A stretch of 60,054 bases of DNA, filler included, from an uncultured delta proteobacterium (GCA_963848135.1; 2 parts of 2 records of this genome joined end to end with filler, not necessarily neighbours in it), one strand, 5' to 3'. Numbered from the whole stretch's first letter, positions 9,760 to 50,795 are shown. The notes: generated by a model from the letters alone, not told the origin. Numbers and translations are program-made.

Positions 9760-10794
9760 TTACAGTCCCTTACCAAACGGGCAGAGAGGATAAGCACACT
9801 CCGGGCAATCCTTGCACAGGCCGCCGTGGCCGATAAATGCCAGCTCTTTCTTGCCAACCTTTTCTCCAGACAGAATCCGCGGTAAAACCAAGTCCAGCAC
9901 GGTGATGCGGTGGTGGAGCCCACAAGCCGGCACGCCTATAAGCGGTATTTCCCCTCCGATATATGCCGTCAGAAACATGGCACCGGGCAGAGCTGCTGCT
10001 CCGTAGTAAACTTCATCGGCTCCGGCGCGTCTGATCGCCGTGCGGGTGACATCGTAGGGATCGACACTCATGCCACCGCTCAGCAGCAGTAAATCGCAGC
10101 CTTTGTCAAGCAAAGTTTGGATCGCGTCTATTATCATTTCCACATCATCCGGGGCAAAAATAATGTCGATCACTTCGGACCCAAGGTCCGTAATCTTGGC
10201 GCTGAGTGTCGGAGCGAATTTATCTTCGATCAACCCCTGATAGACTTCGCTACCGGTGATTACCAAACCGGCTTTGGCTTTGCGCAATGATTTGACGGAA
10301 ACGACCCCGCCGTGCTGAGTAGCAATGGCGGCTGCCCGTTCGATTGGAGCGCGCTTCATAACCAGTGGTATCGCCCGGGTGGCTGCCACCAATTCGCCCT
10401 TCTTGACCAGCGTGTTGCTGTGGAGGGTTGCGCACATAACCTCATCCACCATGTTGAAAGCAGCTAATGCTGCCGTGTCCACGGATAGCAAACCATCGAA
10501 GACAGCGTGCAGACCTATCTTGCCTTCCTTCGGATCGTCACGCCACTCGATTCCCCGTCCGGCCAATCCTTTGGCCAGTAACGAAGCCGCCTGGTTTTCA
10601 TGGATTTCGTCATCTTCCAGGTCAATGAGATATAAGTGGTTTTTTCCGAGTTTTTGAAGATGGCAGATGTCATCATTGCATACCGTATGGCCTTTGCGGA
10701 AAGCCGGGCCCTTGAACTCGCCGGGACGTATTTCGGTAATGTCGTGGGCCAGTTCGGTGCCAATGGCATTTTTGACGTCAATTTTTTTTAACAC
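9760..10794 (-). CDS. Molybdopterin-binding protein (MoeA-like family)
   Basis: LAHDITEIRPG, TGSEVY, SGGMSVDP, LPGAM motifs; C-terminal CxxCxxCxxxxCP. Confidence 0.8.
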   Translation of the reverse strand: MLKKIDVKNAIGTELAHDITEIRPGEFKGPAFRKGHTVCNDDICHLQKLGKNHLYLIDLEDDEIHENQAASLLAKGLAGRGIEWRDDPKEGKIGLHAVFDGLLSVDTAALAAFNMVDEVMCATLHSNTLVKKGELVAATRAIPLVMKRAPIERAAAIATQHGGVVSVKSLRKAKAGLVITGSEVYQGLIEDKFAPTLSAKITDLGSEVIDIIFAPDDVEMIIDAIQTLLDKGCDLLLLSGGMSVDPYDVTRTAIRRAGADEVYYGAAALPGAMFLTAYIGGEIPLIGVPACGLHHRITVLDLVLPRILSGEKVGKKELAFIGHGGLCKDCPECAYPLCPFGKGL

Positions 10795-10820
10795 GGCTGT
10801 TCTCCTCGCTACGAAAATCC

Positions 10821-11507
10821 TCAGTGCATTTTAACCGACGAAAATACGCCGCGGTTATTCTTATGCGCTTGCCGGTGATTATCACCTCCCGGTGTCCAGT
10901 TCATATCCGGCCAGGTCACTTCCCTTGCATGGGAAAAGTAGCAGCCATCAGCGCAGGGCTTACAGAGGACACGCCCCTTTTGGATGACTTCGCGACAATC
11001 TCGAATGATCTGGCCGCATCGGCTGCATGCGACCTTACTTTTGGTCGGTCCCGGCATGTCGCAGGCATCGAGAGTCACCCGAACTTTCTGCACCCTGAAC
11101 AAAACGCTGTCGGGCATTCGGTGATAAGCCGCCAATTGTCGGGCCGATTTATTTTCGATTTCCGGAGCGTACATAGCCGCCAGACTGCGGGATTCTTCGG
11201 TAGAAAGCACCCGATAGGCCTTCCCGGATTCCAAATTCACGAAAGTAGCCGCCATGATCCCGTAATCCATGAACTTCAGACTCCGCCGCCCCAGTTTAAC
11301 ACCGGTCACATGGGCCACGGCATCGGCCGTGCAGCGATCCATTTCGACAAAAACGATGAGCTTTTTAATTTGTTCACGCCGGGTGGGCTCGGTCAGCCCG
11401 ATCAAGCGGCATCCCAGCATGGCCATCCGCACCCCGACGACCTGGCCGGGGCAGAGATGGCCATGGGTGGCGGCGGATGAATCCAAAAGTTTTTCGAAAG
11501 ATTTCAC
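10821..11507 (-). CDS. FmdE family protein with C-terminal zinc finger
   Basis: HGHLCPG, EMDRCTADA, CSRC...CKPC. Confidence 0.85.
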   Translation of the reverse strand: MKSFEKLLDSSAATHGHLCPGQVVGVRMAMLGCRLIGLTEPTRREQIKKLIVFVEMDRCTADAVAHVTGVKLGRRSLKFMDYGIMAATFVNLESGKAYRVLSTEESRSLAAMYAPEIENKSARQLAAYHRMPDSVLFRVQKVRVTLDACDMPGPTKSKVACSRCGQIIRDCREVIQKGRVLCKPCADGCYFSHAREVTWPDMNWTPGGDNHRQAHKNNRGVFSSVKMH

Positions 11508-11616
11508 GAATGCTCCCTTTCCTTTCTCTCAGAAAGTCTCGGTCATTCAATGTTTTTGGTCTTGCGTCGATCTCCACATGGAAGGGTAATCCCACCAATA
11601 ATGGTGTAAGAAGCGT

Positions 11617-12267
11617 TTACACGGAGACCTCATTGTACACTGATATCTCCTCAAGATCTTCTTGTATGAGGGTTCTCGTCGCCCTCGCCAGATTTTTGTA
11701 GAAATTCGTTTCAGCTTTCTTCTCGACGTTTTCCTGAAAATCGGAAATCCATGCTCCGATATGATCCGTATAAAAATGCCTGCGTTTTTCCATGTAGCGA
11801 CCGGACGCATCCATGTCACTGTGACTGGCGGCCTCCAACGCCTTGAATATCAGAAAGTAGACAAATTCAAGTTCCGCGGTGATATGATCAGGGGCATCAT
11901 GGAAATCACTTGAAATGTCCAGCCCTTCCTCTTCGTAACGGCTCACGACATCCAGAGTCGAATTGCCCATGACTTTTCTCCCGCTCTCCATATAGACAGA
12001 ACCATAAGGAGGCGCCAGCATCCCGAACGGACCGACAAAAAGTCTGCTGAAATCCACTCTGAGGGAGTCGACATCCCCTTCATCTTCAAAATACTTAGCC
12101 ATCTTGGCAATATAAGGAACCGCACGGATACAGGCCTTTTTGATCCGGCTTTCGAGAACCTTCAACCTTAATACCATGTCCTCATTCGGTGGACTGAAAA
12201 ACTCGGATAACAGTCTGAATGCGTCTCCTTTTCCCGCTTCACGGTCAAAAAGATCCTCTTTTTCCAT
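11617..12267 (-). CDS. TorD/DmsD family molybdoenzyme chaperone (ArrD-like)
   Basis: RLFVGP, APPYGSVY, DAPDHITAELEF; downstream of arrABC. Confidence 0.9.
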   Translation of the reverse strand: MEKEDLFDREAGKGDAFRLLSEFFSPPNEDMVLRLKVLESRIKKACIRAVPYIAKMAKYFEDEGDVDSLRVDFSRLFVGPFGMLAPPYGSVYMESGRKVMGNSTLDVVSRYEEEGLDISSDFHDAPDHITAELEFVYFLIFKALEAASHSDMDASGRYMEKRRHFYTDHIGAWISDFQENVEKKAETNFYKNLARATRTLIQEDLEEISVYNEVSV

Positions 12268-12350
12268 TTCTCACCCCTCCATCGTTTAAGGCGTCATCCT
12301 CTCAACCAGAAAGAGAAGGTTCAGACAACCGATGAATCCACCATTCTCCA

Positions 12351-13466
12351 TTATGCGCCGCTTACTTTTCCCAACTTGAAGTTTCGTTCACCATAGGTAT
12401 ACACGAGCAGTAGCACCGACAGGGCAAACACGACAACGAAGACTTCCCAGATGGTCGGCCAATAGCTGACAAAAGGAGGCTGCCCCTCCGCCTTTGGGCC
12501 TGTCGGCATGACCAATCCACCTAAGACAAATTCGAGGCGCCCTGCGAGCATACCGATCAAAAAGAGGGCAGATGCCGAGACCTTTCCCCAATTGGTCCTT
12601 CGAATAGACGGGACGGCCAGCAATACCAGTGGAATCACCAATCCGACCCACAAGGCGAGATGATACCACCCGGTACCCATCGCATGCCGAAATCCCGCAA
12701 ATTCCAGTCCGCTTGAGGAGATCCCGCCGATAATACTCCTCCAGATGAAAAAGATGAGCGTTGCCCCGACGACGATGCCGAAAAGATTGGCCAGGTCATT
12801 ATACAAATTGACCAGCCCTTCGCTCATCGGTTCGCCGGAAAAACGATGGTATGACATGTTGATGAGCAGTACCGCAGCGAGCGCACTGGAGAATCCGGTC
12901 AGGGGCAAGTACATGGTCAGAAACTGGGCATTGAAAACGGGACGGGCATCCGGAAGACCGAACAACCAACCGAGTGTTGTGGAGGTGGCAATGGCAATCA
13001 AAAACACGAAAACACCGAGAGTTCTGCTCGATTCCCCGGTGTGCGTCCTCCAAAATGAGATTAGAAGTACTGTCAGATAAAGGCCATAAAGCATGGCGAG
13101 CCACCACAGAGGGGATGCAAGGTTTGGAGAAAAAATAAAATAGATGGCGTTCCAGGGTGAACCGAGATGCAGAAGAAGACATGTCAAACCGGCGAGCATA
13201 ACGGCTATTTCCAACATTGCCGTGCGCTTCTCGATCGGCTGGTACCGCTTAATGCCGAAAACAACTGGTATGGAAGAAACAAAGGCAAGTCCTGTACTGG
13301 TTAATGAAAAGAAGATGTAGGATGCTATGGGCAGAGTCCAGACAAGGATGTCCGTTTTGGCGTAGAGAACGAACCCGACCGTAAAAACCTTATAAACGGT
13401 GAGCAGGCCAATAAGAATTCCCAATCCCAGCAACCCGTACCACAACTTAACTTTGATGCCTTGCAT
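12351..13466 (-). CDS. arrC: NrfD/PsrC family membrane anchor of arsenate reductase
   Basis: Polytopic membrane protein; WTLPIASYIFF, LHLGSP, SPLWW, YWPTIWE; directly after arrB. Confidence 0.8.
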   Translation of the reverse strand: MQGIKVKLWYGLLGLGILIGLLTVYKVFTVGFVLYAKTDILVWTLPIASYIFFSLTSTGLAFVSSIPVVFGIKRYQPIEKRTAMLEIAVMLAGLTCLLLHLGSPWNAIYFIFSPNLASPLWWLAMLYGLYLTVLLISFWRTHTGESSRTLGVFVFLIAIATSTTLGWLFGLPDARPVFNAQFLTMYLPLTGFSSALAAVLLINMSYHRFSGEPMSEGLVNLYNDLANLFGIVVGATLIFFIWRSIIGGISSSGLEFAGFRHAMGTGWYHLALWVGLVIPLVLLAVPSIRRTNWGKVSASALFLIGMLAGRLEFVLGGLVMPTGPKAEGQPPFVSYWPTIWEVFVVVFALSVLLLVYTYGERNFKLGKVSGA

Positions 13467-13468
13467 AT

Positions 13469-14197
13469 CTATACCCCCCCTTTCGTACTCTCATAGTTTG
13501 CCGGATTGAAACTCCGTATGTAATAAACGTTCGGCTCTGTACCGAACCCCTCTTTCAGCCTGAAAGGTTTGAACTTCCCGAGGAGATAGCGCACCTTGCT
13601 CTCAGGGTTCTCCATATCGCCGAATATCCTCGCATCGGCCGGGCACGCCTCCACGCAGTAGGGCAGTTCTCCCTCCTTGATTCTGTGGTCACAGAACGTG
13701 CATTTTTCAACCACGCCATTCGGTCTATTACCTGGCAGGGTCTTTTCCCTTTCCGGATTGTGGTAGGGGGTCCCTCGGCCATTGTTCACCTTTTGGAGAA
13801 GTTCTGAAGGGGAGCCGGTGCAGCCTTGAATTACTGGTTTTGAATCCCTCCAGAACTGGTGGGGTTGCTGCCAGTTGAAATAGATGACCTCGTACGGGCA
13901 ATTAAACATGCAGTACCGGCAACCGATGCATTTCTTCGGATCGTGCATGGTAATTCCGTTATCCAATTTGTGCATGGCCTTGGTCGGGCACCCCCTTACA
14001 CAGGGTGGGTTTCCACAGTGGTTGCAGAGGGTCGGAATGTAGTGAAACCGCACGTCGGGAAAGGTGCCCGAAGTTTCGGTGATCTTATTGGACCAGTAGA
14101 TGCCGTCCGGCACGTTGTTCTCGTTCCTGCAGGCGATGCTGCAGGCGCCGCAGCCGACACACCGCTGCAGGTCGATGACCATGGCATATCTTGGCAT
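13469..14197 (-). CDS. arrB: Respiratory arsenate reductase Fe-S subunit
   Basis: Four Cys clusters (CVGCGACSIAC, CNHCGNPPCVRGCP, CIGCRYCMFNCP, CTFC...CVEACP). Confidence 0.92.
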   Translation of the reverse strand: MPRYAMVIDLQRCVGCGACSIACRNENNVPDGIYWSNKITETSGTFPDVRFHYIPTLCNHCGNPPCVRGCPTKAMHKLDNGITMHDPKKCIGCRYCMFNCPYEVIYFNWQQPHQFWRDSKPVIQGCTGSPSELLQKVNNGRGTPYHNPEREKTLPGNRPNGVVEKCTFCDHRIKEGELPYCVEACPADARIFGDMENPESKVRYLLGKFKPFRLKEGFGTEPNVYYIRSFNPANYESTKGGV

Positions 14198-14208: not shown

Positions 14209-16790
14209 CTACGCTTTTTCAATTTTGACGCGGGTGCCGGCGTGACGGACCGTGCTGCCGCTCAGCCGCTCGTAAACCGCGGGGATCAAGTCATTGTTGT
14301 TTCCGCCTCTGGGGGTTTTGCCGAACTCTTTGGCGGCCAACCGGCCGTAAACCCAGTGCCCCTGGCCGTAACATTTGGCCACCGTCCCCGGACGGACACC
14401 CTCCCAGAGCTTGGCGGTGCACTCGATCTTCCCGGTCGGCGACGTCAACCGGATTGTGTCGCCGGATTTGATGCCGAGATTTATGCCGTCCACCGGATTG
14501 ATCTTGGCCACGTCGTCCCAGGCTTCGTCTCCGGGATCTAGATCCTTGAACTCGTAGTACCAACTGCAATTGGCCGAACGGCCTTCGCGGTTGAGCTTGG
14601 ATTTGTAATCTACGAAAATAAAGGGATATTCATTGGGGTCCCCGTCGATGTAAGGCTCCTCGTAGTGGGGTACAAAGGCGCGCTCCCCTCTGGCCTCGTA
14701 AAAAGTGACCTCCATCACTTTATCTACGGTGGTGTTGTGTTTTTCGGCATGCTTCTCCAGGGCCTCTTTCAGGGTTTCACTGTAAAACTCGAACATGCCG
14801 GTCTTGGTTTCCATCTTTCCCCAGCGTTTACGGAATGGATATGGATCCGAGTTCCAGACACCGGCCTTGGCGAATTCCTCCCATCCGTTGAATTTGTCCC
14901 CGCCCTTGTATTTTGCCGGATCCCAGAGGTTCTGTGTGGCAAACTTCAAGGCAAAGAGCGCGAACTCTTTTTCGTTGGTCGGTTCTTTTCCGGTTTCCGG
15001 GTCCTTGTATTCCTTGAAGTGGCGCAGCAGATTGTCGAATCCGCGCTCGGCCAGTTTTTCGGCGATGAGCCAGGGAATTTCGGTCTCATCGGTTTTATAG
15101 TCCCACACCGGCTCGATGATGGGCTGCATGATGGTCACATGTCGGTAGCCGTTGCCGTGGGATTTGACATAGCCCCATTTTTCGAACATGTGGTGGGTGT
15201 TGGGCAGCACGATATCGGAAAACCATGTGAATTCAGATGCGTTGGTGGTGATGTGCACCACGAACGGTATCTTGGACAGGGCGCGCTCCCAGCGTTCCGG
15301 CTGACCGCAGGAGAAGGTGAAGTTGTTCATGTAGCCCACAGCCACCTTGATCTCGTTGGGGTCTTCGTTAAGAATGCCGTCGGCGGCATTGTTGGTGACG
15401 ACACCCCCACCCGATTTCCCCTTGTTCAACGCCGGAAATTCGAGGCGACCGCGGTGATCGATTTTTTCGTGTTTCTTGCCTTTTTTGGCGATTTCGTCCA
15501 TGAAATCATCCGGTTTGGGAAACTTGCTCGTATATTCCTTGTTGCTCTTGAGGGTGCCGCCGACATTGTCGACCCCTCCGGTGAGGCCGTTGAGGGCATG
15601 ACAGATCATGCTCGCATAGCCACCCCGCACCTGCATCACCGGGCCTCCACCCACCCAGGAAATGACATGAGGAGCCGCCTTGGCATAATCTATGGCCACC
15701 TGACGAATCTGATCGGCCGAAATTCCGCAGCGCTCGGCGGCCCATTCGGGTGTTTTGTCTTTGAGTTCCAAGTTCCACCACTTCACCAGACCGTAGGTGT
15801 ACTTTTCTTCGAAATCTTCTTCATTGACGTTTTGATCGAGAACAAAACGATTTTCACCGTCTATGAAATCGCCCACAAACTCCTTGTACCAAAGCCCTTC
15901 GGTCAGGATCACGTGGGCCAGGGCGGCGGCAAGGGCGGCATCCTGCCCCGGTTTTACCGGCATCCAGATGTCAGCCTTGGCGCCGGTGGCGGAAAGCCGC
16001 GGCTCGATCACCACGATCTCGGCCCGGTCGATCACAGAACCCCAGATCTGGGAGTAATAGGACACCTGTCGGTTGGCGGCCAGGGGATCCGCGCCCCAGA
16101 TGAGCATGTAGCGGGTGCTCGCCACATCATACTGACGGTAATCCCAGAGGCCCTCCGTGTAGTAAGGGCCGAATTTTTCTGCCTCGGCGCAGATGGCGCT
16201 GTGAGAGATGTTGTTGGGGGAACCGATAATTTTGGTCATCCGATCGTAGAGGACGTCCCGCATATAGGAGTAGCGTCCGCGCATGAGCATGTACTTGTGG
16301 GTTTCGTTGTTTTTGCGCAGGTCAATGATCTTGTCTGCGATGGTGCTGAGCGCCTCGTCCCAGGATATCGGCACGAACTTCGGGTCTTCGCTGCGTCCCT
16401 TTTTCGGGTTGGTCCGCTTCATGGGCGTCTTGACCCGGTCCGGGTCGTAGACCTGTTGCAAACCAAGATGGGAGCGGGGACACCCTGCGCCGTTGTTGAC
16501 CTTCGAATGCGGATTGCCTCTGACCTTCACGGCCCGCCCGTTGATCACATAGACCTGCTTGGAGCACCAGGACGTGCACCCCTGGCATGTGGCGGGCAGC
16601 CATTGCCCCATGCCGGTTGCGGCGCGCCGTCGGATGCGGCCAGCGCTTTTAGTTCTGGTTTTAGTCCTGTCCCGGCTGCAACTGCAGCGCCGGTAACCGC
16701 CGACGCCTTGATGAACGACCGTCTCGATAACTTGACGTTACCGAGAAAGCCCTCCATCAGGTTTTTGCTTTCCTTTTTGATGTCATCCAT
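14209..16790 (-). CDS. arrA: Respiratory arsenate reductase catalytic Mo subunit (copy 1; 1-nt deletion ~16625 after the Tat leader)
   Basis: CQGCTSWC, RGRY and SHSAICAEAEK motifs; Tat leader SRRSFIK lies in ORF 16545-16790. Confidence 0.9.
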
Positions 16791-16903: not shown

Positions 16904-17287
16904 TCAAACCGGCGTCCGAGATACAAGTTCGTTGTCGCGGATACACTTCAACCAAAAATGCAGTTCGTCCGGATCCAGAGGCTTGCTCAAACAGGCATAT
17001 ATGTGCTGCGAAAGCGCATCCTTCAGGTCGGGATGGAGCCGCTGTTGCGATGTGCAAAAGATGTTGATGTCTGAAAAGCGGACCTTCAATTGGCGAATCA
17101 TCCGATTGGTCAACGGAACCGAATCAACATCCAGGATGGTCGCCAAACAGCCGGAACGACTGAGCCCATTTATAAGATCTTCCAAATCTTGAAACGCCCT
17201 GGCCTCGAATTGCCTCTCGATTAAAATCGAGCGAAGCTCATCAATCTGCCGTTCGTCCGTGCTCAAAATGCAAATGCAACTTCCCAC
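16904..17287 (-). CDS. Stand-alone atypical receiver (CheY-like) domain protein
   Basis: ILDVD, CTS and SKP elements present; degenerate first acidic pair; GTG start after GAGG; conserved in copy 2. Confidence 0.7.
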   Translation of the reverse strand: MGSCICILSTDERQIDELRSILIERQFEARAFQDLEDLINGLSRSGCLATILDVDSVPLTNRMIRQLKVRFSDINIFCTSQQRLHPDLKDALSQHIYACLSKPLDPDELHFWLKCIRDNELVSRTPV

Positions 17288-17357
17288 TGAAGAGCCTCAT
17301 AGAACGTATATAAATGGATTGCATCGACTTGCTAACCAATGGGCACTACCACATTGT

Positions 17358-17373
17358 AGCAATCAGTGTACCA
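17358..17373 (-). promoter_or_regulatory. Sigma54 (-24/-12) promoter of the receiver-arrABCD operon
   Basis: TGGTACACTGATTGCT (GG-N10-GC); identical in copy 2. Confidence 0.8.
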
Positions 17374-17433
17374 GTATCGCACCGAAATTACCGAAAAGAA
17401 GATTAGGTAATAGGAAAACACCCAATAGGATTA

Positions 17434-17446
17434 TAACTATTTGAAA
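17434..17446 (-). promoter_or_regulatory. Candidate IHF site
   Basis: TTTCAAATAGTTA resembles WATCAAN4TTR in an AT-rich tract ~60 bp upstream of the sigma54 promoter. Confidence 0.45.
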
Positions 17447-18081
17447 TTTAATTGTTATTTCTATTGAACTCATTTGTGTAAACCGAAGGCCGACACGATG
17501 GGGGCCGAAAGATAGGAGACGTATGAAGGGATTAAACGGGTCGAAGCGTCCGGAAATCGAACGGTGAAATCCGGCTAAAAATATTCAACATATATTCCAG
17601 ATAGTTATACCGTCCTGAATCCGAACGATGCCTATCAGCATTACCGGACAAAAACGATGATATCGTCTTGGCAATCGTTTTTTTTCTGACCACCGACAAA
17701 AAACCGTGGAAAAGTAGCTTAACCCGAATATTTCATGAAATCTTTTCACCGAGCAAAAAAAGATGCAATATCGAGGCATTGGTCAAACTCATGAACCGTA
17801 TAACCGATGGACACTTTGTACCGCCCGAAGATCTAAAGAAAGAGTTGAAAAGATTTCACTCTTGGGGTCAACCGAAGGTTCCCATGGCCCTGGGTTATTC
17901 GAGGATCGCGGTAGACTACTGCAGCATCACCTCGAAATACCTTGGCTATAGAAACTTCCAATTGGTGAAATTGCCGGGTTAAGGTGGATTAGGAATTTTA
18001 CTGGAGTTTTTTTAAAAAGGAACTGGATACAAGCACCATGTGGGTAGCGCTCGGTGAAAGGGAATGTGGACTCCTAAATGT

Positions 18082-20310
18082 TCAATGAATGGTGGGCTTG
18101 CGGATTTGATATTTTTTCAGTTTTTCGTAAAGGGTGCTTCGGCTGATTCCCAGACGGGAGGCAGCCGTTGTTTTGTTCCAGTCACAACTCTCCAATACTT
18201 CGCGGACCAAAAGTGCTTCGTTTTCGATGATAGTCTGTTTCTGTTTGGCAACGTCCAGTTCTTCGATGGCATCTTCAATGACGGACGCAGGCAGATCGGA
18301 TACTTCAATCTGAGAGTTTTTAGCGAGCACAACCCCATGTTCAATACTGTTTTCCAGTTCACGCACATTCCCCGGCCAGAGATATCCAAGAAGCCTGCGC
18401 ATGGCCTCAGAGCTGATTTTCTCCACGGGTTTATCCTGTTCTTTGCTAAACTGGTCAACAAAAAAGCGGGCCAAAAGCGGTATGTCGTTGGCGCGCTCCC
18501 GGAGAGGGGGTAAATTGATAGGGATGACGTTTAATCGATAATATAAATCCTCGCGAAAACGACCGGCATTGACCTCCTTAAGTAGATCCTTGTTGGTGGC
18601 CGCCAGTATCCGGACATTTACGCCTATCGAATCTTCTCCGCCGACGCGCTCAAATTTGTGACTCTGCAAAACCCTAAGCAATTTGATCTGGGCCGAGGCA
18701 GATATCTCTCCAATTTCGTCTAAAAATACAGTCCCGCCGTCGGCCAGCTCGAATCGACCTTTTTTTCTACGCAAAGCACCGGTAAACGCCCCTTTTTCGT
18801 GACCGAACAGTTCACTTTCCAGTAAAGTCTTCGGATAAGCCGAGCAATTGATCACCACAAAGGGTTTGCCATTGCGATGACTGACGCGGTGTATGGCGCG
18901 AGCGACCAATTCTTTACCGGTACCACTTTCGCCTTGAATCAATACAGTGGCATCGGTTGGGGCAACGTCCTCGATAAGCTTGTAAATGACCTGAAGTTTG
19001 GGGTCTCGACCCACCAATTCGTCGAAGCCGGAGATAGCGTCCACGCGCCCTTTGAGATTGCGCACTTCTTCTTCATTCAGAGCGGCGCGGTGTATAGCCC
19101 CGGCAGTTTGCTGGAGGATGAGTTCGATGACCTCGAGGTCTTTATTGACGCATTTGCATTCCCCCGGACATCCAATAATCAAGGCGCCTGATGTCTGCCC
19201 ACGATGCTGGAGGGGAAACACGGCGATTTTTTCTGCTTTTCGCATGTTTTCCGGCAACATCATGTCAGGGAAATCTTTCTTTCGGAAAAATCCGACCGAG
19301 ATGAGTGAGACAATTTTATCAATAACCGGAGCATAAGAGTTTGCTGTTGTGGGCCCAACTTTTTTCCCGGTTGACAGAAATAGGTCAGCATCCTCACCCC
19401 TGATAACCATCAGCGCCATGTTGCGGCATTCAACGATATTGCCCAAAGCCTTCAGGAGATAATCGGACAGGTCGCACAGACTCGGCAGGGCGGATACTTC
19501 CCGGGAGATCGAAAGGGCCGTGGTCATGCGCTGGTGGGCCTTGTCGAGGTCGCAGTGTTGAACTTCCAAACGGCAGTTGGTGTCCTGAAGCCTCGCGGTG
19601 TAGTCGTTCAGGCGGACGAGCATCCGGTTAAAGGCTGTAGCCAGTCTGGTCACCTCTGTTCGGCCTTGCACGCTGATTTCGGAATCGAGATTCCCTTCAT
19701 CGATCTTCTCGGCCGCATCCGCCAGCTTGATAAGAGGTTGGGTTAACCGGTGGATGAACAGGTGGCTGGCCAATAGGGCAAGCAGTAAGATACCGAAGGA
19801 AATCAGGCTCATCTGGAGCCACAAATCTCTTACTTGCGCCCGGTAGGGTGCCTCTGAAAGACCCAGCCGCAGGACACCGGCTTTGCCGCCGAATATAGGC
19901 CAGGCAATATCAAGAAAATGATCGTTATTTTCAGAGACAAACTTTTCGAGGTGCTGGCTGTCACCGTCTGATACAGAATTAGCATCTATGAGTTGAACCG
20001 GTACCCCGCCGGTAAATGTATGGCTGAGCACTCTGCCGTTCTTGACGACAATGATATAGGCGACGTCCGGCGTACTGATTATTTGATCGTCCAAGAGTTT
20101 TTGCAACCCGACGCGATCGTTGAGCAATATGGTATCGGCAGCATCGAGGCTCAGGCTGTGGGCGATATTTTCCGCCCGGGCGACAGCCCCTTCGATCAAA
20201 CTGACGCTATAGCGATGGGTGACGGTCTGCGAGATAATCATCCCGCTGATGACCACAAGAATCGCTACAGCAAGCAGAAGTGTATTTTTAAGACTTTTCG
20301 GTTTCATCAT
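18082..20310 (-). CDS. Membrane-anchored sigma54-dependent activator (TM-periplasmic sensor-TM-HAMP-GAF-like-AAA+-HTH)
   Basis: Two TM segments, [26 protein letters not shown], Fis-type HTH; no H-box or receiver domain seen. Confidence 0.88.
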
Positions 20311-21268
20311 GCCGGATAGAGGGATTCGAAAGCACTTGCCGGTAAATGTCCTTTACGGGTTCATACCAGGATTCCTCGGGCGCCATGAATCGGTCGATCA
20401 TGAGTTCGCCCAGAATTTCCCGCCCTTCGGGCTCCTGGTGCATCGTCAAAAGGAGTTGTCTAATTTGTTTCTTCACATGAACGGAAAGATACGCGGAGGC
20501 CACTAAAGGAGGGCTCCCGAAAGGTCTCGATTTTTTAATGACGCGTGTCATCGAGGTGTAGAATGGATTCCTCTGGTTGTAATATTCCCACAAATGACCA
20601 TCGACCGCTGCACCGTCGACAAGACCTTTGGCAACGGCCAGAATCGAATTGTCATGGCTGTATGTAAAATTGACTTCCCTGAAAAAAGTTTCGGGGGTTT
20701 GGTTGCGTTCCATCAACCAAAATTTCGGCACCAATGCGCCGGTGTTTGACTCTGGATCGGTGAAAGCAAACACACGCCCTTCCAAATCCGAAAGGCTCTT
20801 AAAACCTTTGTCCTTATGTACAATGAGATAACTCTGGTAGAAGGGTTCTCCCCGAACCACAGGTGTTGCTAGCCCATCGAACCCAAAGACTTCCTTGCCA
20901 ACGGCATACGGACCCGTGCAAATAAATGCCAGGTCGATTTCCCCTTTGGGAAAGAGCTCGTTTATCTCACTGTAAGTTCGGCGCTGGATCAGTGTAATGT
21001 CGGTGCCGAGTTTTCGGCCGATATAATCGAGAAGATCCCGATAATAGGATAGGGTTTCCTTCGGGGAAATCATGGCGGCAACCGCCACACGTAATTTTGG
21101 ATTATCGCTCGCGGGCGGCTCAGGTTGATCGACTTTTACTGTCTGGGAAAAATCGATTTGTTTGTAGCCGGTTTCACTGCCGCACCCGAGAAAAAAAAGT
21201 AAGATGAATCCGGTTAGGATAAAAATAGGGGTTCGAGAGCGTCTGTGCGCTAAAAATAGCAAACTCAT
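20288..21268 (-). CDS. PhnD-like oxyanion-binding lipoprotein (ArrX/AioX-like)
   Basis: Lipobox FLGC; AAMISPKET, FICTGPY, FTDPESNTG, SHDNSI; overlaps the activator gene by 23 bp. Confidence 0.85.
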   Translation of the reverse strand: MSLLFLAHRRSRTPIFILTGFILLFFLGCGSETGYKQIDFSQTVKVDQPEPPASDNPKLRVAVAAMISPKETLSYYRDLLDYIGRKLGTDITLIQRRTYSEINELFPKGEIDLAFICTGPYAVGKEVFGFDGLATPVVRGEPFYQSYLIVHKDKGFKSLSDLEGRVFAFTDPESNTGALVPKFWLMERNQTPETFFREVNFTYSHDNSILAVAKGLVDGAAVDGHLWEYYNQRNPFYTSMTRVIKKSRPFGSPPLVASAYLSVHVKKQIRQLLLTMHQEPEGREILGELMIDRFMAPEESWYEPVKDIYRQVLSNPSIRHDETEKS

Positions 21269-21478
21269 GGAGCGCTCCTTTTAGTCGGTGCGGAGGGTAG
21301 GAAAAGCAGAGGAAGGAATTCAGATGCCGCGTGGGAAGGCACATGCACCGATTCAGTTCGGTATGTTGCGCTGAACAGTGATGACTGAGTCGAAACCCGG
21401 GCGAATTTCTCAAATTGGATCGAGAGTGCCTTTCCGCCCAAACATCTGGCTCAGCAGCGTTTATACTTTTTTTATTGT

Positions 21479-21503
21479 TACCACTGTGTGGTATTTCGGT
21501 CAA
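21479..21503 (-). promoter_or_regulatory. Palindrome TACCAC-N3-GTGGTA beside TTGACC upstream of the arrX-like gene
   Basis: Arms conserved in copy 2 (50999-51013) although spacer and flanks differ. Confidence 0.55.
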
Positions 21504-21625: not shown

Positions 21626-21973
21626 ATGAAACCATTCATCAAAGTCATGAAAGCCTTATCAGATCCGAACCGGGTCAAAATCGTCAAACTGCTCCAGCAT
21701 AAAATGATGTGTGTCTGTGAGCTGCAGGGCGCCCTGGGTATATCCCAGCCCACGGTTTCCAAACACTTGAAAATTCTCGAAGAGGCGGGTCTCGTCGGTT
21801 ATAAGAAAGACGGCCTTTGGGTGAATTATTACCTGGCCGATGGCCGCGACAACCCATACGCAGCCAGCCTTCTTGGAAACCTGCGCCACTGGCTCAACGA
21901 TGAACCGGCGATCCGAGATTTGACGAATAAACTGCCGCAATTCAATCGCTTTGAAATTTGTGGCAAGAGCTAA
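21626..21973 (+). CDS. arsR: ArsR family As(III)-responsive repressor
   Basis: KALSDPNR, CVCEL, SQPTVSKHL. Confidence 0.92.
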   Translation: MKPFIKVMKALSDPNRVKIVKLLQHKMMCVCELQGALGISQPTVSKHLKILEEAGLVGYKKDGLWVNYYLADGRDNPYAASLLGNLRHWLNDEPAIRDLTNKLPQFNRFEICGKS

Positions 21974-43736: not shown

Positions 43737-46319
43737 CTATGCTTTTTCAATTTTGACGCGGGTGCCGGCGTGACGGACGGTGCTGCCGCTCAGCCGCTCG
43801 TAAACCGCGGGGATCAAGTCATTGTTGTTTCCGCCTCTGGGGGTTTTGCCGAACTCTTTGGCGGCCAACCGGCCGTAAACCCAGTGCCCCTGGCCGTAAC
43901 ATTTGGCCACCGTCCCCGGACGGACACCCTCCCAGAGCTTGGCGGTGCACTCGATCTTCCCGGTCGGCGACGTCAACCGGATTGTGTCGCCGGATTTGAT
44001 GCCGAGCTTTATGCCGTCCACCGGATTGATCTTGGCCACGTCGTCCCAGGCTTCGTCTCCGGGATCTAGATCCTTGAACTCGTAGTACCAACTGCAATTG
44101 GCCGAACGGCCTTCGCGGTTGAGTTTGGATTTGTAATCTACGAATATGAAGGGATATTCATTGAGATTACCGTCGATGTAAGGTTCCTCGTAGTGGGGGA
44201 CAAAAGCGCGCTCCCCTCTGGCCTCGTAAAAAGTGGCCTCCATCACATTGTCCACGGTGGTGGTGTGTTTTTCGGCGTGCTTCTCCAGGGCCTCTTTCAG
44301 GGTTTCGCTATAAAACTCGAACATGCCGGTCTTGGTTTTCATCTTGCCCCAACGCTTACGGAATGGGTACGGATCCGAGTTCCACACACCGGTCTTGGCA
44401 AATTCCTCCCAGCCGCTGAATTTGTCCCCGCCCTTGTGTTTTGCCGGATCCCAGAGGTTCTGAGTGGCAAACTTCAGGGCAAAGAGCGCAAACTCTTTTT
44501 CGTTGGTCGGTTCTTTTCCAGTTTCCGGATCTTTGTATTCCTTGAAGTGGCGCAGCAGATTGTCGAATCCACGCTCGGCCAGTTTTTCGGCGATGAGCCA
44601 GGGAATTTCGGTCTCATCGGTTTTGTAGTCCCACACCGGCTCGATGATGGGCTGCATGATGGTCACATGTCGATAGCCGTTGCCGTGGGATTTGACATAG
44701 CCCCATTTTTCGAACATGTGGTGTGTGTTGGGCAGCACGATATCGGAAAACCATGTGAATTCAGATGCGTTGGTGGTGATGTGCACCACGAACGGTATCT
44801 TGGACAGGGCGCGCTCCCAGCGCTCCGGCTGACCGCAGGAGAAGGTGAAGTTGTTCATGTAGCCCACAGCCACCTTGATCTCGTTGGGGTCTTCGTTAAG
44901 AATGCCGTCAGCGGCATTGTTGGTGACGACACCCCCACCCGATTTCCCCTTGTTCAACGCCGGAAATTCGAGGCGACCGCGGTGATCGATTTTTTCGTGT
45001 TTCTTGCCTTTTTTGGCGATTTCGTCCATGAAATCGTCCGGTTTGGGAAACTTGCTCGTATATTCCTTGTTGCTCTTGAGGGTGCCGCCGACATTGTCGA
45101 CCCCTCCGGTGAGGCCGTTGAGGGCATGACAGATCATGCTCGCATAGCCACCCCGCACCTGCATCACCGGGCCTCCACCCACCCAGGAAATGACATGAGG
45201 AGCCGCCTTGGCATAATCTATGGCCACCTGACGAATCTGATCCGCCGAAATTCCGCAGCGTTCGGCGGCCCATTCGGGTGTTTTGTCTTTGAGTTCCAAG
45301 TTCCACCACTTCACCAGACCGTAGGTGTACTTTTCTTCGAAATCTTCTTCATTGACGTTTTGATCGAGAACAAAACGATTTTCACCGTCTATGAAATCAC
45401 CCACAAACTCCTTGTACCAGAGCCCTTCGGTCAGGATTACGTGGGCCAGGGCGGCGGCAAGGGCGGCATCCTGCCCCGGTTTTACCGGCATCCAGATGTC
45501 AGCCTTGGCGCCGGTGGCGGAAAGCCGCGGCTCGATCACCACAATCTCAGCCCGGTCGATCACAGAACCCCAGATCTGGGAGTAATAGGACACCTGTCGG
45601 TTGGCGGCCAGGGGATCCGCGCCCCAGATGAGCATGTAGCGGGTGCTCGCCACATCATACTGACGGTAGTCCCAGAGGCCCTCCGTGTAGTAAGGGCCGA
45701 ATTTTTCTGCCTCGGCGCAGATGGCGCTGTGAGAGATGTTGTTGGGGGAACCGATAATTTTGGTCATCCGATCGTAGAGGACGTCCCGCATATAGGAGTA
45801 GCGTCCGCGCATGAGCATGTATTTGTGGGTTTCGTTGTTTTTGCGCAGGTCTATGATCTTGTCTGCGATGGTGCTGAGCGCCTCGTCCCAGGAAATCGGC
45901 ACGAACTTCGGGTCTTCGCTGCGTCCCTTTTTCGGATTGGTCCGCTTCATGGGGGTTTTGACCCGGTCCGGATCGTAGACCTGTTGCAAACCCAGGTGGG
46001 ACCGGGGACACCCTGCACCGTTGTTGACCTTAGAATGCGGATTGCCTCTGACCTTCACGGCCCGGCCGTCGACGACGTAGACCTGCTTGGAGCACCAGGA
46101 CGTGCACCCCTGGCAAGTGGCCGGCAGCCATTGCCCCATGCCGGTTGCGGCGGTGCCGTTGGATGCCGCCAGTGCCTTCAGTTCGGGTTTTAGTCCGGTC
46201 CCGGCTGCAACTGCGGCGCCGGTAACTGCCGACGCCTTGATGAACGACCGTCTCGATAACTTGACATTACCGAGAAAACCCTCCATCAGATTTTTGCTTT
46301 CCTTTTTGATGTCATCCAT
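43737..46319 (-). CDS. arrA: Arsenate respiratory reductase catalytic subunit, Tat-exported
   Basis: SRRSFIK leader, CQGCTSWC, RGRY (Arr-type rather than Arx GRGWG), SHSAICAE. Confidence 0.95.
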   Translation of the reverse strand: MDDIKKESKNLMEGFLGNVKLSRRSFIKASAVTGAAVAAGTGLKPELKALAASNGTAATGMGQWLPATCQGCTSWCSKQVYVVDGRAVKVRGNPHSKVNNGAGCPRSHLGLQQVYDPDRVKTPMKRTNPKKGRSEDPKFVPISWDEALSTIADKIIDLRKNNETHKYMLMRGRYSYMRDVLYDRMTKIIGSPNNISHSAICAEAEKFGPYYTEGLWDYRQYDVASTRYMLIWGADPLAANRQVSYYSQIWGSVIDRAEIVVIEPRLSATGAKADIWMPVKPGQDAALAAALAHVILTEGLWYKEFVGDFIDGENRFVLDQNVNEEDFEEKYTYGLVKWWNLELKDKTPEWAAERCGISADQIRQVAIDYAKAAPHVISWVGGGPVMQVRGGYASMICHALNGLTGGVDNVGGTLKSNKEYTSKFPKPDDFMDEIAKKGKKHEKIDHRGRLEFPALNKGKSGGGVVTNNAADGILNEDPNEIKVAVGYMNNFTFSCGQPERWERALSKIPFVVHITTNASEFTWFSDIVLPNTHHMFEKWGYVKSHGNGYRHVTIMQPIIEPVWDYKTDETEIPWLIAEKLAERGFDNLLRHFKEYKDPETGKEPTNEKEFALFALKFATQNLWDPAKHKGGDKFSGWEEFAKTGVWNSDPYPFRKRWGKMKTKTGMFEFYSETLKEALEKHAEKHTTTVDNVMEATFYEARGERAFVPHYEEPYIDGNLNEYPFIFVDYKSKLNREGRSANCSWYYEFKDLDPGDEAWDDVAKINPVDGIKLGIKSGDTIRLTSPTGKIECTAKLWEGVRPGTVAKCYGQGHWVYGRLAAKEFGKTPRGGNNNDLIPAVYERLSGSTVRHAGTRVKIEKA

Positions 46320-46431: not shown

Positions 46432-46815
46432 TCAAACCGGCGTACGGGATACAAGTTCGTTGTCGCGGATACACTTCAACCAGAAATGCAGTTCGTCCGG
46501 ATCCAGAGGCTTGCTCAAACAGGCATATATGTGCTGCGAAAGCGCATCCTTCAGGTCGGGATGGAGCCGCTGTTGCGATGTGCAAAAGATGTTGATGTCT
46601 GAAAAGCGGGCCTTCAATTGGCGAATCATCCGATTGGTCAACGGAACCGAATCGACATCCAGGATGGTCGCCAAACAGCCGGAACGACTGAGCCCATTTA
46701 TAAGATCTTCCAAATCTTGAAACGCCCTGGCCTCGAATTGCCTCTCGATTAAAATCGAGCGAAGCTCATCAATCTGCCGTTCGTCCGTGCTCAAAATGCA
46801 AATGCAGCTTCCCAC
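46432..46815 (-). CDS. Stand-alone atypical receiver domain protein
   Basis: One residue different from 16904-17287. Confidence 0.7.
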   Translation of the reverse strand: MGSCICILSTDERQIDELRSILIERQFEARAFQDLEDLINGLSRSGCLATILDVDSVPLTNRMIRQLKARFSDINIFCTSQQRLHPDLKDALSQHIYACLSKPLDPDELHFWLKCIRDNELVSRTPV

Positions 46816-46885: not shown

Positions 46886-46901
46886 AGCAATCAGTGTACC
46901 A
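46886..46901 (-). promoter_or_regulatory. Sigma54 promoter
   Basis: TGGTACACTGATTGCT. Confidence 0.8.
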
Positions 46902-47599: not shown

Positions 47600-49834
47600 T
47601 TAAATGTTCAATGAATGGTGGGGCTTGCGGATTTGATATTTTTTTAGTTTTTCGTAAAGGGTGCTTCGGCTGATTCCCAGACGGGAAGCAGCCGTTGTTT
47701 TGTTCCAATCACAACTCTCCAATACTTCGCGGACCAAAAGTGCTTCGTTTTCGATGATGGTCTGTTTCTGTTTGGCAACGTCCAGTTCTTCGATGGCATC
47801 TTCAATTACGGACGCAGGCAGATCGGATACCTCAATCTGAAAGTTTTTAGCGAGCACAACCCCATGTTCGATACTGTTTTCCAGTTCACGCACATTCCCA
47901 GGCCAGGGATATCCGAGAAGCCTGCGCATGGCCTCAGAGCTGATTTTCTCCACGGGTTTACCCTGTTCTTTGCTAAACTGGTCAACAAAAAAGCGGGCCA
48001 AAAGCGGTATGTCGTTGGCGCGCTCCCGGAGAGGGGGTAAATTGATAGGGATGACGTTTAATCGATAATATAAATCCTCGCGAAAACGACCGGCATTGAC
48101 CTCCTTAAGTAGATCCTTGTTGGTGGCCGCCAGTATCCGGACATTTACGCCTATCGAATCCTCTCCGCCGACGCGCTCAAATTTGTAACTCTGCAAAACC
48201 CTCAGCAATTTGATCTGGGCCGAGGCAGATATCTCTCCAATTTCGTCTAAAAATACAGTCCCGCCGTCGGCCAGCTCGAATCGACCTTTTTTTCTACGCA
48301 AAGCACCGGTGAATGCTCCTTTTTCGTGACCGAACAGTTCACTTTCCAGTAAAGTCTTCGGATAAGCCGAGCAATTGATCACCACAAAGGGTTTGCCGTT
48401 GCGATGACTGACGCGGTGTATGGCGCGAGCGACCAATTCTTTACCGGTACCACTTTCGCCTTGAATCAATACAGTGGCATCGGTTGGGGCAACGTCCTCG
48501 ATAAGCTTGTAGATAACTTGCAGTTTGGGATCTCGACCCACCAATTCGTCGAAGCCGGAAATAGTTTCCACGCGTCCTTTGAGATTGCGCACTTCTTCTT
48601 CATTCAAAGCGGCGCGGTGGATGGCCCCAGCGGTCTGCTGAAGGATGAGTTCGATGACCTCAAGGTCGTTTTTGATGCACTTGCACTCTCCCGGGCATCC
48701 GATGAGCAGGGCGCCGGAAACCTGCCTACGATGTTGGAGGGGAAACACGGCGATTTTTTCTGCTTTTCGCATGCTTTCCGGCAATAACATACCAGGGAAA
48801 TCGTCTTTCCGAAAAAAACCGACCGCAGTGAGTAAAATAATTTTTTCAGTAACCGGAGCAAACGAGTTCGCGGCGGCAGTCCCTATTACCTTTCCGGCTG
48901 ATAGAAAAAGGTCGGCACCCTTCCCGCTGAAAACCATCAGCGCCATGTTACGGCATTCAACAATATTGCCCAAAGCCTCCATGAGATAACCAGACAGATC
49001 ACTTAGACTCGACAGGGCGGAAACTTCCCTGGAAATTGAAAGAGCAGTGGTCATGCGCTGGTGGGCCTTGTCGAGGTCACAGTGTTGAACTTCCAAACGG
49101 CAGTTGGTGTCCTGAAGCCGCGCGGTGTAATCGTTCAGACGCACCAGCATCCGATTAAAGGCTGTAGCCAGTTTCGTCACCTCTGTTCGCCCCTGCACGC
49201 TGATTTCGGAATCAAGATTACCTTCATCGATCTTCTCGGCCGCATCGGCCAGCTTGACAAGAGGTCGGGTTAACCGGTGGATGAACAGGTGGCTGACCAA
49301 CAGGGCAAGCAGCAATATGCCCAAGGATATCAAGCTCATCTGGAGCCACAAATCCCTCACTTGCGCCCGATAGGGCGCCTCGGAAAGGCCCAGCCGGAGG
49401 ACACCGGCCTTGCCGCCAAATATCGGCCAGGCAATGTCCAGAAAGTGGTCATTACTTTCTGAAGCGAATTTCTCTAGGTGCCCGCTATCACTATCAGAAA
49501 ATTCATTCGCATCTATCAGCTGGACCGGTACACCGCCAGTAAATGTATGGCTGAGCACTTTGCCGTTTTTGACGACAAAGATATAGGCGACGTCTGGTGT
49601 GCTGATCATTTGGTCGTCCAGGAGTTTTTGCAGTCCGACACGGTCATTGAGAAGAATGGTATCAGCGGCATCGAGGCTCAGACTGTGGGCAATATTCTCC
49701 GCGCGGGCGATAGCCCCCTCGATCAGGCTCACACCATAGCGGTGGGTAACGATTTGCGAGATAATCAACCCGCTGATAACCACCAGAGTCGCTACCGTGA
49801 GCAGAAGCGTATTTTTAAGACTTTTCGGTTTCAT
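47600..49834 (-). CDS. Membrane-anchored sigma54 activator (sensor-HAMP-GAF-like-AAA+-HTH)
   Basis: Same architecture as 18082-20310; GAFTGA intact. Confidence 0.88.
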
Positions 49835-50795
49835 CTTGCCTGATAGAGGGGTTAGAGAGCACTTGCCGGTAAATTTCCTTGACGGGCGCATACCAGTTGT
49901 CCTCTGGTGTCATGAACCGGTCGATCATGAGTTCGTCCAAGATTTGTCGACCTTCGGTCTCCTGATGCATGGTCAGAAGGAGTTCTTGAATTTGCTTTTT
50001 CACATGCACGGAAAGATACGCTGAAGCCACTAAAGGCGGACTCCCAAAAGGTCTCGATTTTTTAATGACTCGCGTCATCGAGGTGTAGAAAGGATTCCTC
50101 TGATTATAATATTCCCACAAGTGTCCGTCGACCGTTGCGCCGTCGACAAGACCTTTGGCAACAGCCAGGATTGAATTGTCATGGCTGTATGTATAATTGA
50201 CTTCCCTGAAGAAAGTTTCGGGGGTTTGATTGAGTTCCATCAGCCAGAACTTCGGCACCAATGCGCCAGTGTTCGATTCCGGATCGGTGAAAGCGAACAC
50301 GCGTCCTTCCAAATCCGGCAAACTCTTGTAACCTTTGTCTTTATGTACAATGAGATAGCTCTGATAGAATGGTTCTCCCCGAACCACAGGTGTTACCAGC
50401 CCATCGAACCCGAAGACTTCCTTGCCGAGGGCGTAAGGACCCGTGCAGATAAATGCCAGGTCGATTTCCCCTTTTGGAAAGAGCTCGTTGATTTCACCAT
50501 AGGTCCTGCGCTGGATCAGGGTAATGTCGGTACCGAGTTCTCGGCCAATATAATCGAGAAGCTCCCGGTAATAGGATAGGGTTTCCTTCGGGGAAATCAT
50601 GGCAGCAACGGCCACACGCAATTTTGGGTTATCGCTTGCGGATGGCTCAGGTTGATCAACCTTTACTGTCTGGGAAAAATCGATTTGTTTGTAACCGGTT
50701 TCACTGTTGCATCCGAGAAAAAAAAGCGAAAGGAATCCGGTTAGAAGAAGAGTAGAGGTTCGAGAGAGTCCGCGAACTATATATTTCGGACACAT
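49815..50795 (-). CDS. PhnD-like oxyanion-binding lipoprotein (ArrX/AioX-like)
   Basis: FLGC lipobox, FICTGPY. Confidence 0.85.
   Translation of the reverse strand: MCPKYIVRGLSRTSTLLLTGFLSLFFLGCNSETGYKQIDFSQTVKVDQPEPSASDNPKLRVAVAAMISPKETLSYYRELLDYIGRELGTDITLIQRRTYGEINELFPKGEIDLAFICTGPYALGKEVFGFDGLVTPVVRGEPFYQSYLIVHKDKGYKSLPDLEGRVFAFTDPESNTGALVPKFWLMELNQTPETFFREVNYTYSHDNSILAVAKGLVDGATVDGHLWEYYNQRNPFYTSMTRVIKKSRPFGSPPLVASAYLSVHVKKQIQELLLTMHQETEGRQILDELMIDRFMTPEDNWYAPVKEIYRQVLSNPSIRQDETEKS

Follow-up and report, generated by a model that had tools for sequence, protein, structure and literature searches.

A candidate phosphorelay-free sensor module at an arsenate respiration operon: an ArrX-like lipoprotein encoded with a membrane-bound sigma-54 activator in an uncultured delta proteobacterium

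The DNA analysed here (the window) comprises 60,054 nucleotides (nt) of an uncultured delta proteobacterium (GCA_963848135.1), consisting of two records joined with filler. It contains an arsenic island twice, and the two copies are about 92% identical across 12.6 kb. On the minus strand of copy 1 a gene for an ArrX-like binding protein is followed by a gene for a membrane-bound sigma-54 activator of 742 amino acids (aa), a gap of about 800 nt, an open reading frame (ORF) of 127 aa, and the arsenate respiration genes arrA and arrB; then come arrC (NrfD), arrD, an FmdE-like gene and a MoCF_biosynth gene. The reading frames of the 326-aa and the 742-aa gene overlap by 23 nt in copy 1. An initial annotation of this DNA, made from the sequence alone, had reported the same arrangement in copy 2 (46432-50795), and the ORFs were found located there as described. 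The genes of this sensor module, the promoter and arrA lie as follows.

20288..21268, minus strand: arrX-like gene of copy 1, 326 aa (ORF and Pfam)
18082..20310, minus strand: membrane sigma-54 activator gene of copy 1, 742 aa, with the order first transmembrane helix (TM1), sCache, second transmembrane helix (TM2), HAMP, GAF, AAA+, helix-turn-helix (HTH)
16904..17287, minus strand: receiver-like gene of copy 1, 127 aa, probably a pseudo-receiver, the first gene past the promoter
17358..17373, minus strand: sigma-54 type -24/-12 promoter, TGGTACACTGATTGCT (motif search)
14209..16790, minus strand: arrA of copy 1 (NF041714, 1292 bits)
49815..50795, minus strand: arrX-like gene of copy 2, 88% identical to that of copy 1
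47600..49834, minus strand: activator gene of copy 2, counted from the start homologous to copy 1; the longest ORF reaches 49891
46432..46815, minus strand: receiver-like gene of copy 2
46886..46901, minus strand: sigma-54 promoter of copy 2, TGGTACACTGATTGCT (motif search)
43737..46319, minus strand: arrA of copy 2, intact, with a twin-arginine (TAT) signal, 860 aa

The 326-aa protein belongs to the Phosphonate-bd family (PF12974, 3.8e-62). Its closest solved structure is ArrX of Chrysiogenes (6x6b, 4e-59), followed by AioX. The N-terminus carries a hydrophobic leader closing on FLGC, which places a Cys at the lipobox position, the pattern by which lipoproteins are recognized; this assignment was made with no dedicated predictor. 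Among the intact homologues, 18 of 19 have a Cys at the equivalent leader position. According to PMC5908839, the pocket of AioX is made up of Tyr88, Cys106, Tyr131, Ser161, Ser163, His192, and Asp210. By alignment these correspond to Y99, C117, Y144, S174, T176, H205, and D223 of the window protein, so that six of seven residues are identical and the remaining one is changed from Ser to Thr. The pocket residues are invariant or nearly so across 20 aligned binding proteins from such modules. No ABC-transporter family was found among 59 scanned ORFs of the window, which argues for a binding protein of the sensor type rather than of the transport type. ORFs, Pfam and PDB relatives all agree with the initial description of an ArrX/AioX-like lipoprotein gene overlapping the gene for the 742-aa protein. 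In each of 22 related loci examined (L001, L003, L105-L124) an ArrX-like gene is likewise located directly upstream of the activator gene, often overlapping it.

The activator contains two hydrophobic windows, at residues ~6-32 and 162-190, which flank a stretch of about 135 residues. Its domains were assigned as follows.

19822..20223, minus strand: predicted periplasmic single-Cache (PDC) domain, residues 30-163 (model, Foldseek, profile)
19606..19761, minus strand: HAMP domain, residues 184-235 (PF00672, 3.4e-14; matches to the HAMP domains of AF1503, EnvZ and NarQ)
19051..19524, minus strand: GAF-fold domain, residues ~263-420, holding C295, C381, C385, and C387 (profile, model)
18265..19017, minus strand: sigma-54 AAA+ domain with lid, residues 432-682, GAFTGA (PF00158, 4e-72; PF25601, 3.4e-26)
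18109..18213, minus strand: Fis-type HTH_8, residues 700-734 (PF02954, 2e-14)

The output half, in which Pfam placed Sigma54_activat at residues 432-598 and AAA_lid at 604-682, has what is expected of an enhancer-binding protein, namely an AAA+ domain with the Walker motifs and the GAFTGA loop, and a C-terminal Fis-type HTH. Neither HisKA nor HATPase_c nor Response_reg was detected in the activator of either copy by a Pfam scan at E<=0.01, as the initial annotation had claimed for histidine kinase and receiver domains. The surroundings gave the same picture, since no kinase domain was found in the 59 scanned ORFs or by tblastn of the window with 14 kinase C-termini, or in 21 of the 22 related loci.

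The periplasmic part was less readily classified. Residues 29-165 matched no Pfam family at E<=10 and no PDB entry by sequence. A search with the homologue P0021 pointed to Cache families, and this lead was tested by fold comparison. An AlphaFold model of residues 1-240 (predicted local distance difference test, pLDDT, 81.6) shows a long helix, a five-stranded sheet, and a return helix. The top Foldseek match of this region was the TM-Cache-TM-HAMP part of WalK (E 4.4e-13, query TM-score, TMq, 0.83), and further matches were to the sensor domains of WalK/YycG, KinD, CitA, DctB, and LuxQ. The periplasmic domain is thus, as judged from the model, of the single-Cache (PDC) fold. Its conserved face includes D65, Q70, Y85, D134, R148, and E153.

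For residues 236-431 only a weak Pfam match to GAF_3 was obtained (E 0.013; 16.4 bits, below the cutoff of 27 bits). A family profile of the middle region matched solved GAF domains (3ci6, 4.4e-5), and the model of this region (pLDDT 87.7) gave at least 351 Foldseek matches at E<=0.001, the top ones all being GAF domains. The provisional label "GAF-like" is therefore borne out by profile and model. With the fold evidence for GAF and Cache, the domain string first proposed (TM, periplasmic domain, TM, HAMP, GAF-like, AAA+ with GAFTGA, HTH) is correct, and its periplasmic part can now be specified as a single Cache.

The GAF domain also invites a different explanation, in which the input is cytoplasmic: a Cys-rich GAF domain would sense arsenite, the reaction product, or the redox state, and the membrane part would mainly be an anchor. 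In NifA, NorR and FhlA the GAF domain serves as signal input. C295, C381, C385, and C387 do not vary among 15 close homologues (motif GCPGxCxC), and the GAF domain is the most diverged part between the two activator copies, with 80% identity as compared to 98% for AAA+. A metal or As(III) site of four Cys as a trait of the whole family was ruled out, however, since only C381 is invariant in a wider set of 22 sequences, and C387 is missing even in the arrA-linked locus L003. Among relatives the Cache domain is better conserved than the GAF domain (mean column identity 62% vs 44%), and the input module recurs on kinases. Cytoplasmic input is therefore considered rather improbable. On the basis of sequence conservation, the four Cys could form a clade-specific site for As(III), a metal or redox sensing.

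The promoter was well supported statistically. The pattern TGGYAYN5TTGCW matched twice in 60 kb, where 0.18 matches were expected, and none of 100 shuffles reached two; both matches are the two homologous promoter sites, and the window holds no others. The promoter is located ~70 nt upstream of the 127-aa ORF, whose GTG start is preceded by GAGG at a distance of 7 nt. The initial annotation had placed a GG-N10-GC promoter upstream of the arr operon. The motif is real, but the receiver-like ORF intervenes before arrA. Between this ORF and arrA no terminator-like site above chance was found, and the receiver-like gene and arrA are presumably co-transcribed. Of 24 related regions, 14 have a strict -24/-12 motif at the equivalent position, where it precedes the receiver-like ORF by 75-145 nt, and rpoN was found in all five of five genomes bearing the module.

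A palindrome, GTGTCC-N7-GGACAC, is common to the relatives. Of 18 regions, 9 contain its core without mismatch, whereas in 20 shuffles the number was at most 2. The palindrome precedes the -24 element by 150-250 nt, and at six loci it occurs twice with a spacing of ~65 nt. In the window the palindrome was not found at up to 3 mismatches, and a search for inverted repeats near the promoter gave no convincing site. The following pair is a degenerate candidate.

17546..17628, minus strand: candidate degenerate pair of activator sites, 19-mers from 17628 and 17564 with 5 and 4 mismatches to GTGTCC-N7-GGACAC

The two 19-mers are separated by 64 nt and precede the -24 element by 256 and 192 nt; they constitute weak evidence. 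The spacer between activator gene and promoter is unusually long in the window (~800 nt); in relatives it measures ~300-970 nt, mostly 300-540 nt. It contains 104-aa ORFs on the opposite strand (17668-17982 and 47210-47500, both plus strand) with no Pfam or NCBIfam match and nothing similar in any related locus fetched.

The 127-aa ORF lies within the span 16904..21268 treated by the initial annotation, which left it undescribed. It turned out to be receiver-like and part of the module. Its match to PF00072 (27.8 bits) falls below the cutoff of 30.2 bits, but hhalign aligned it with the receiver of a canonical ArrR (94%, E 9e-8), and its profile matched PDB receivers with values down to 2e-6, NtrC-family receivers included. 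The gene follows the activator gene in 17 of the 20 loci with enough downstream sequence, being absent in L109, L111, and L115, and is a conserved component of the module. In the window, Ser-Thr takes the place of the acidic Mg-binding pair that follows strand 1, and these positions vary among 19 homologues. Asp53 occupies the phospho-acceptor position in the window and is Asn in 2 of the 19 sequences; Ser80 is invariant, Lys102 is conserved in at least 90%, and alpha4-beta5-alpha5 is the best-conserved part. Judged by these residues, the protein is probably a pseudo-receiver acting by protein contact.

A remote kinase might nevertheless phosphorylate this protein, which would then turn the activator on or off. 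In favour of this, the evidence supports a receiver fold, and the retention of Asp53, Ser80, and Lys102 leaves room for phosphorylation by a distant kinase. On the other hand, the acidic pair has been replaced, Asp53 is not universal, the Pfam score stays under its cutoff, and kinase domains are lacking from the window and almost all related loci. Moreover, the receiver-like gene is located downstream of the very promoter that it would need to control. We regard such a remote phosphorelay as very unlikely.

The module is widespread. The best 120 full-length homologues of the activator measure 724-756 aa, are 57-99% identical and have an identical Pfam domain set. A search with the Cache region alone gave 352 clusters at 90% identity, with Sigma54_activat in 117 of the 120 listed. 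The initial annotation had proposed a survey of this architecture near arrA in other genomes, and this survey revealed that the module is not specific for arr. Only at L003 of the 22 loci was arrA located downstream (77% identity), whereas 14 of the 22 loci, all within L105-L120, had a downstream operon of TtrB-like, NrfD, and TtrA-like genes (e.g. L107:10352-15797); of the remaining loci, 3 had neither operon in the flank and 4 ended too early to be assessed. The TtrA model scored 490 bits in L107, under its cutoff of 1750 bits. FmdE and MoCF genes 60-80% identical to those of the window occur in six of the 14 Ttr-linked loci, and in the Ttr-linked loci, too, the binding protein has kept its arsenic pocket. 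In Geobacter OR-1 and Anaeromyxobacter PSR-1, according to PMC11462812, As(V) respiration is accompanied by induction of TtrA homologues that show As(V) reductase activity. No tie between the Ttr-like enzymes found here and this As(V)-induced TtrA was obtained, since the homologues bear generic names only. The enzyme of the Ttr-like operon may be the Ttr-type arsenate reductase mentioned in PMC11462812.

In a maximum-likelihood tree of the 22 activators, rooted at the midpoint only, the two arr-linked activators fall within one clade of seven (100/99) and are nested among Ttr-linked ones. They are not sisters, as the window activator groups with L001 and the Ttr-linked L105. This tree indicates that the downstream reductase has been swapped at least twice.

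A sample of 401 genomes of the phylum (Thermodesulfobacteriota) contained 16 genomes with the fused activator and 14 with ArrA, only one having both. Several of the 13 other arrA loci carry canonical parts instead. L145, L147, and L148 encode ArrX, a kinase, and a REC-sigma54-HTH_8 regulator; the kinases have sCache_3_2, HisKA, and HATPase domains, with HAMP found in L147, and that of L148 was detected by tblastn only. L139 and L141 encode ArrX, a HAMP-HisKA_3-HATPase kinase, and a REC-LuxR regulator, with a Pfam sCache_3_2 match in L139. L146 has a kinase and a sigma-54 regulator; at L138, the sigma-54 activator at the start of the contig is truncated. In the available flanks of six of the 13 loci none of the ArrX, kinase or regulator parts was found, and the receiver-like gene was found in none of the 13. 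The Cache profile of the fused activators scored 82 bits on the ArrS kinase of L141 and 77 bits on that of L139, both encoded between arrX and arrR. The input domain of the activator is thus homologous to that of these ArrS kinases. With the Cache profile, no significant match was obtained to the ArrS sensor of L147 (hhalign 13%) or to the kinase of L145.

The Cache-domain profile retrieved 1938 relatives among 1.84 billion representatives. From the best 150 of them, 84 of the 93 matches of at least 400 aa were scanned. These comprised 62 histidine kinases, 10 sigma-54 activators, 3 GGDEF proteins, 2 chemoreceptors, 1 SpoIIE phosphatase, 1 LuxR-type one-component protein, and 5 other or incomplete proteins. 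All 10 sigma-54 activators were among the strongest Cache matches (E 3.6e-52 to 5.9e-30). Pfam sCache_3_2 was detected in 19 of the 84, within the profile-matched region in the rows checked. Between the activator and the HAMP-GAF-HATPase kinase P0138, identity amounts to 53% over residues 2-283, and similarity ends where the GAF domain starts. Judged by these kinase relatives, the input module is an ordinary kinase input to which an enhancer-binding output has been attached. Two further relatives were observed besides. P0198 combines a Cache-HAMP input of the same type with PAS, GAF, and a LuxR-type HTH and is a membrane one-component regulator. P0169 has a partial Phosphonate-bd domain ahead of Cache-HAMP, which may represent a gene fusion or a frameshifted gene call.

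In another explanation the Cache domain senses the small ligand directly. The ArrX-like lipoprotein would then not be the signalling partner and might act as a buffer, scavenger or carrier of the oxyanion or work for a different receptor. Structural neighbours of the domain (CitA, DctB, KinD, Tlp receptors) bind ligands themselves, and at the locus of the kinase relative P0138 (L132) there is no binding-protein gene upstream, although this locus is uninformative as a guide to a partner because the contig ends inside the gene. This explanation is unlikely in view of the adjacency of the ArrX-like and activator genes in 22 of 22 loci with overlapping frames, of the arsenic pocket kept in all 20 binding proteins, and of the lack of an ABC partner among the scanned ORFs. 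In canonical systems, AioX and ArrX act as sensors in partnership with kinases (PMC5908839).

Compared with known arsenic regulatory systems, the module shares most parts and differs in their connection. AioXSR of Rhizobium NT-26 and ArxXSR of Alkalilimnicola ehrlichii are three-component arsenite sensors; as described in PMC5908839, they have an AioX/ArrX binding protein with the same pocket residues, and ahead of a molybdoenzyme operon a promoter for sigma-54 (RpoN) together with an AAA+ activator that bears a Fis-type HTH. They differ in having a separate histidine kinase and an AtoC-type, receiver-bearing regulator, whereas here input and output reside in one membrane protein. From the parts of such a three-component system, the binding protein was found in the window, but neither a histidine kinase nor a receiver fused to the output. 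The ArrXSR systems of Chrysiogenes arsenatis and of L145, L147, L148, L139, and L141 likewise have ArrX beside arrA. ArrS proteins from the same phylum have an sCache_3_2-HAMP input, its Cache in L139 and L141 being homologous to that of the activator. In L145, L147, and L148 ArrR, itself a sigma-54 activator, shows 48-52% identity to the activator's output half. In contrast to the module, canonical ArrXSR consists of two proteins joined by phosphotransfer and has neither a GAF domain nor the small receiver-like gene. Chrysiogenes ArrR has no AAA+ domain, as stated in PMC5908839.

WalK and the LuxPQ- and TorTS-type kinases are similar on the input side, in that the TM-Cache-TM-HAMP part of WalK superposes on that of the activator and the periplasmic domain of LuxQ was also matched, but their output is a kinase, whereas here it is a sigma-54 AAA+ transcription activator. 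Accessory or binding proteins dock on the sensor domains of such kinases, and the periplasmic domain of LuxQ receives the binding protein LuxP. NifA, NorR, and FhlA resemble the activator in their GAF-AAA+-HTH order, and their NCBIfam models match its AAA+-HTH part below cutoffs. In these proteins the GAF domain restrains AAA+ until the signal arrives. They are soluble and receive cytoplasmic signals, whereas here the GAF domain is located behind a transmembrane Cache-HAMP input. ToxR and CadC have an N-terminal OmpR-type winged helix and one membrane helix and act at sigma-70 promoters; the activator, in contrast, is of the ATP-driven sigma-54 type and has two membrane helices and a C-terminal HTH, and Pfam detected in it only HTH_8 and no OmpR-type winged helix. 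With ToxR and CadC it shares the union of sensor and DNA-binding activator in one membrane protein without a phosphorelay. It thus works like the ToxR/CadC class without being a member.

Taken together, we favour, with somewhat better than even confidence, the reading that the module unites an ArrS-type input and an ArrR-type output in a fusion that needs no phosphorelay. As suggested by the homologies, in evolution an ArrS-type Cache-HAMP part would have been joined via a GAF domain to an ArrR/AioR-type AAA+-HTH part, with the kinase core and the covalent receiver left out. Direct signalling without phosphorelay had been proposed initially, and this proposal stands in part: the activator is free of kinase and receiver domains, and the comparative loci fit a fusion replacing S and R.

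In the proposed mechanism the ArrX-like lipoprotein on the outer face of the inner membrane would bind an arsenic oxyanion, most likely arsenate, and the loaded form would dock on the periplasmic Cache domain of a dimeric activator. The signal would be transmitted via TM2 and HAMP to the GAF domain, which presumably exerts negative control and would then stop restraining AAA+. Ring assembly of the AAA+ domains would take place at upstream sites, and the ring would remodel the sigma-54 RNA polymerase bound to the -24/-12 promoter. The resulting transcript would span the receiver-like gene, arrABCD, and the genes for cofactor maturation. The self-induced receiver-like protein, devoid of the acidic Mg pair, would probably act as a non-phosphorylated feedback partner of the activator.

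Several points weigh against the fusion reading. A membrane HAMP dimer would have to control a hexameric ring, and this ring would have to reach the DNA. Cache domains of the CitA, DctB, and KinD types usually bind small ligands themselves, the window activator has no Pfam Cache match of its own (sCache_3_2, PF17203), and ArrS proteins paired with REC-sigma54 regulators match the Cache profile weakly (12.8 bits for L145, hhalign 13% for L147). The only locus of P0138 has no ArrX-like gene upstream in a contig that ends inside the gene. The family palindrome occurs in the window only as degenerate copies, and the usual target in relatives is a TtrBCA-like enzyme of unproven substrate. L111 has a kinase ~2.5 kb off, and the receiver-like protein keeps Asp53, Ser80, and Lys102.

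The geometry problem of a membrane-bound hexamer would be removed by regulated proteolysis, in which a Cache signal leads to cleavage and to an active soluble GAF-AAA+-HTH fragment. Some membrane-integrated regulators are activated by cleavage. Neither a protease gene nor a cleavage motif was noticed, though, and the HAMP domain and coiled coil are 96% identical between the copies, fitting conformational signalling. Proteolytic activation therefore appears highly improbable.

A more far-reaching version of the fusion reading is put forward tentatively and with considerable doubt. The module could be the first sigma-54 system that turns the occupancy of a periplasmic binding protein directly into AAA+ ring assembly, via Cache, HAMP, and GAF of a single membrane protein and without phosphoryl transfer. 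The pseudo-receiver could be a split-off remnant of the ArrR receiver that acts in trans on the AAA+ domain and, being induced by the system, provides feedback, and the cassette could be a portable arsenate sensor placed before two unrelated arsenate reductases, Arr and the Ttr-like enzyme.

All parts of the module are of known kinds, and their wiring is apparently undescribed. The accessible parts of PMC5908839 and PMC13685797 describe kinase-regulator systems only. A full-text literature search that did not cover the primary Geobacter OR-1 and Anaeromyxobacter PSR-1 papers yielded no account of a membrane-bound sigma-54 activator next to arr or ttr genes. The initial statement that this architecture was not known to be characterized thus agrees with the literature searched. 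How arsenate respiration is regulated determines the release of arsenic in sediments and aquifers but is understood in few organisms, and the cassette is common in uncultured Thermodesulfobacteriota. If the fusion reading is true, one transmembrane enhancer-binding protein can embody the whole AioXSR/ArrXSR logic, which raises the question of how a dimeric membrane HAMP gates a DNA-binding hexameric AAA+ ring. The cassette also ties little-known Ttr-like reductases to this sensor, and a compact arsenate biosensor of two or three genes could be designed from it.

The remaining genes of copy 1 and the divergent neighbour of arrX are located as follows.

9760..14197, minus strand: arrB, arrC (NrfD), arrD (TorD-like), FmdE-like, and MoCF_biosynth genes of copy 1 (Pfam)
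21626..21973, plus strand: arsR, divergent from arrX, with genes for an ArsP permease and a thioredoxin next to it (Pfam)

The two islands are part of a segmental duplication (1474-24464 and 30151-53890) with a period of ~29 kb and blocks 81% to 99% identical. Identity between the copies is mosaic: ArrB is 100%, ArrC 99.7%, the receiver-like protein 99%, ArrX 88%, and ArrD 87% identical, and within the activator the values listed above for GAF, AAA+, and HAMP with coiled coil differ as well. This mosaic suggests recombination or gene conversion between the copies. Genomes G150, G002, and G003 also have two paralogous modules of binding protein and activator at separate loci, as in the window. 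In arrA of copy 1 a deletion of 1 nt relative to copy 2 near 16624/16625 puts the TAT leader (16545-16790) out of frame with the 800-aa body; this arrA is either a pseudogene or affected by an assembly error.

At 9760-11507 and 39123-41036 lie genes for a MoCF_biosynth protein and for an FmdE-like protein that bears a DksA/TraR zinc finger, and such genes are retained behind both Arr and Ttr-like operons. Genes of the MobB, MoeA, and MoaA types lie near the island (8604-9206, 33993-35204, 37109-38703). The island brings its own molybdenum-cofactor maturation set. The divergent gap between arsR and arrX measures 357 nt (21269-21625) and contains weak sigma-70-like hexamers on both strands at chance frequency. 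The arrX and activator genes may themselves be under ArsR (arsenite) control, which would result in a two-layer logic. The arsR-ArsP layout beside the module was also seen in L001. Fragments of an rve_3 integrase core and of an HTH transposase at the left edge of the window (161-1301) are a possible mobile-element border of the island.

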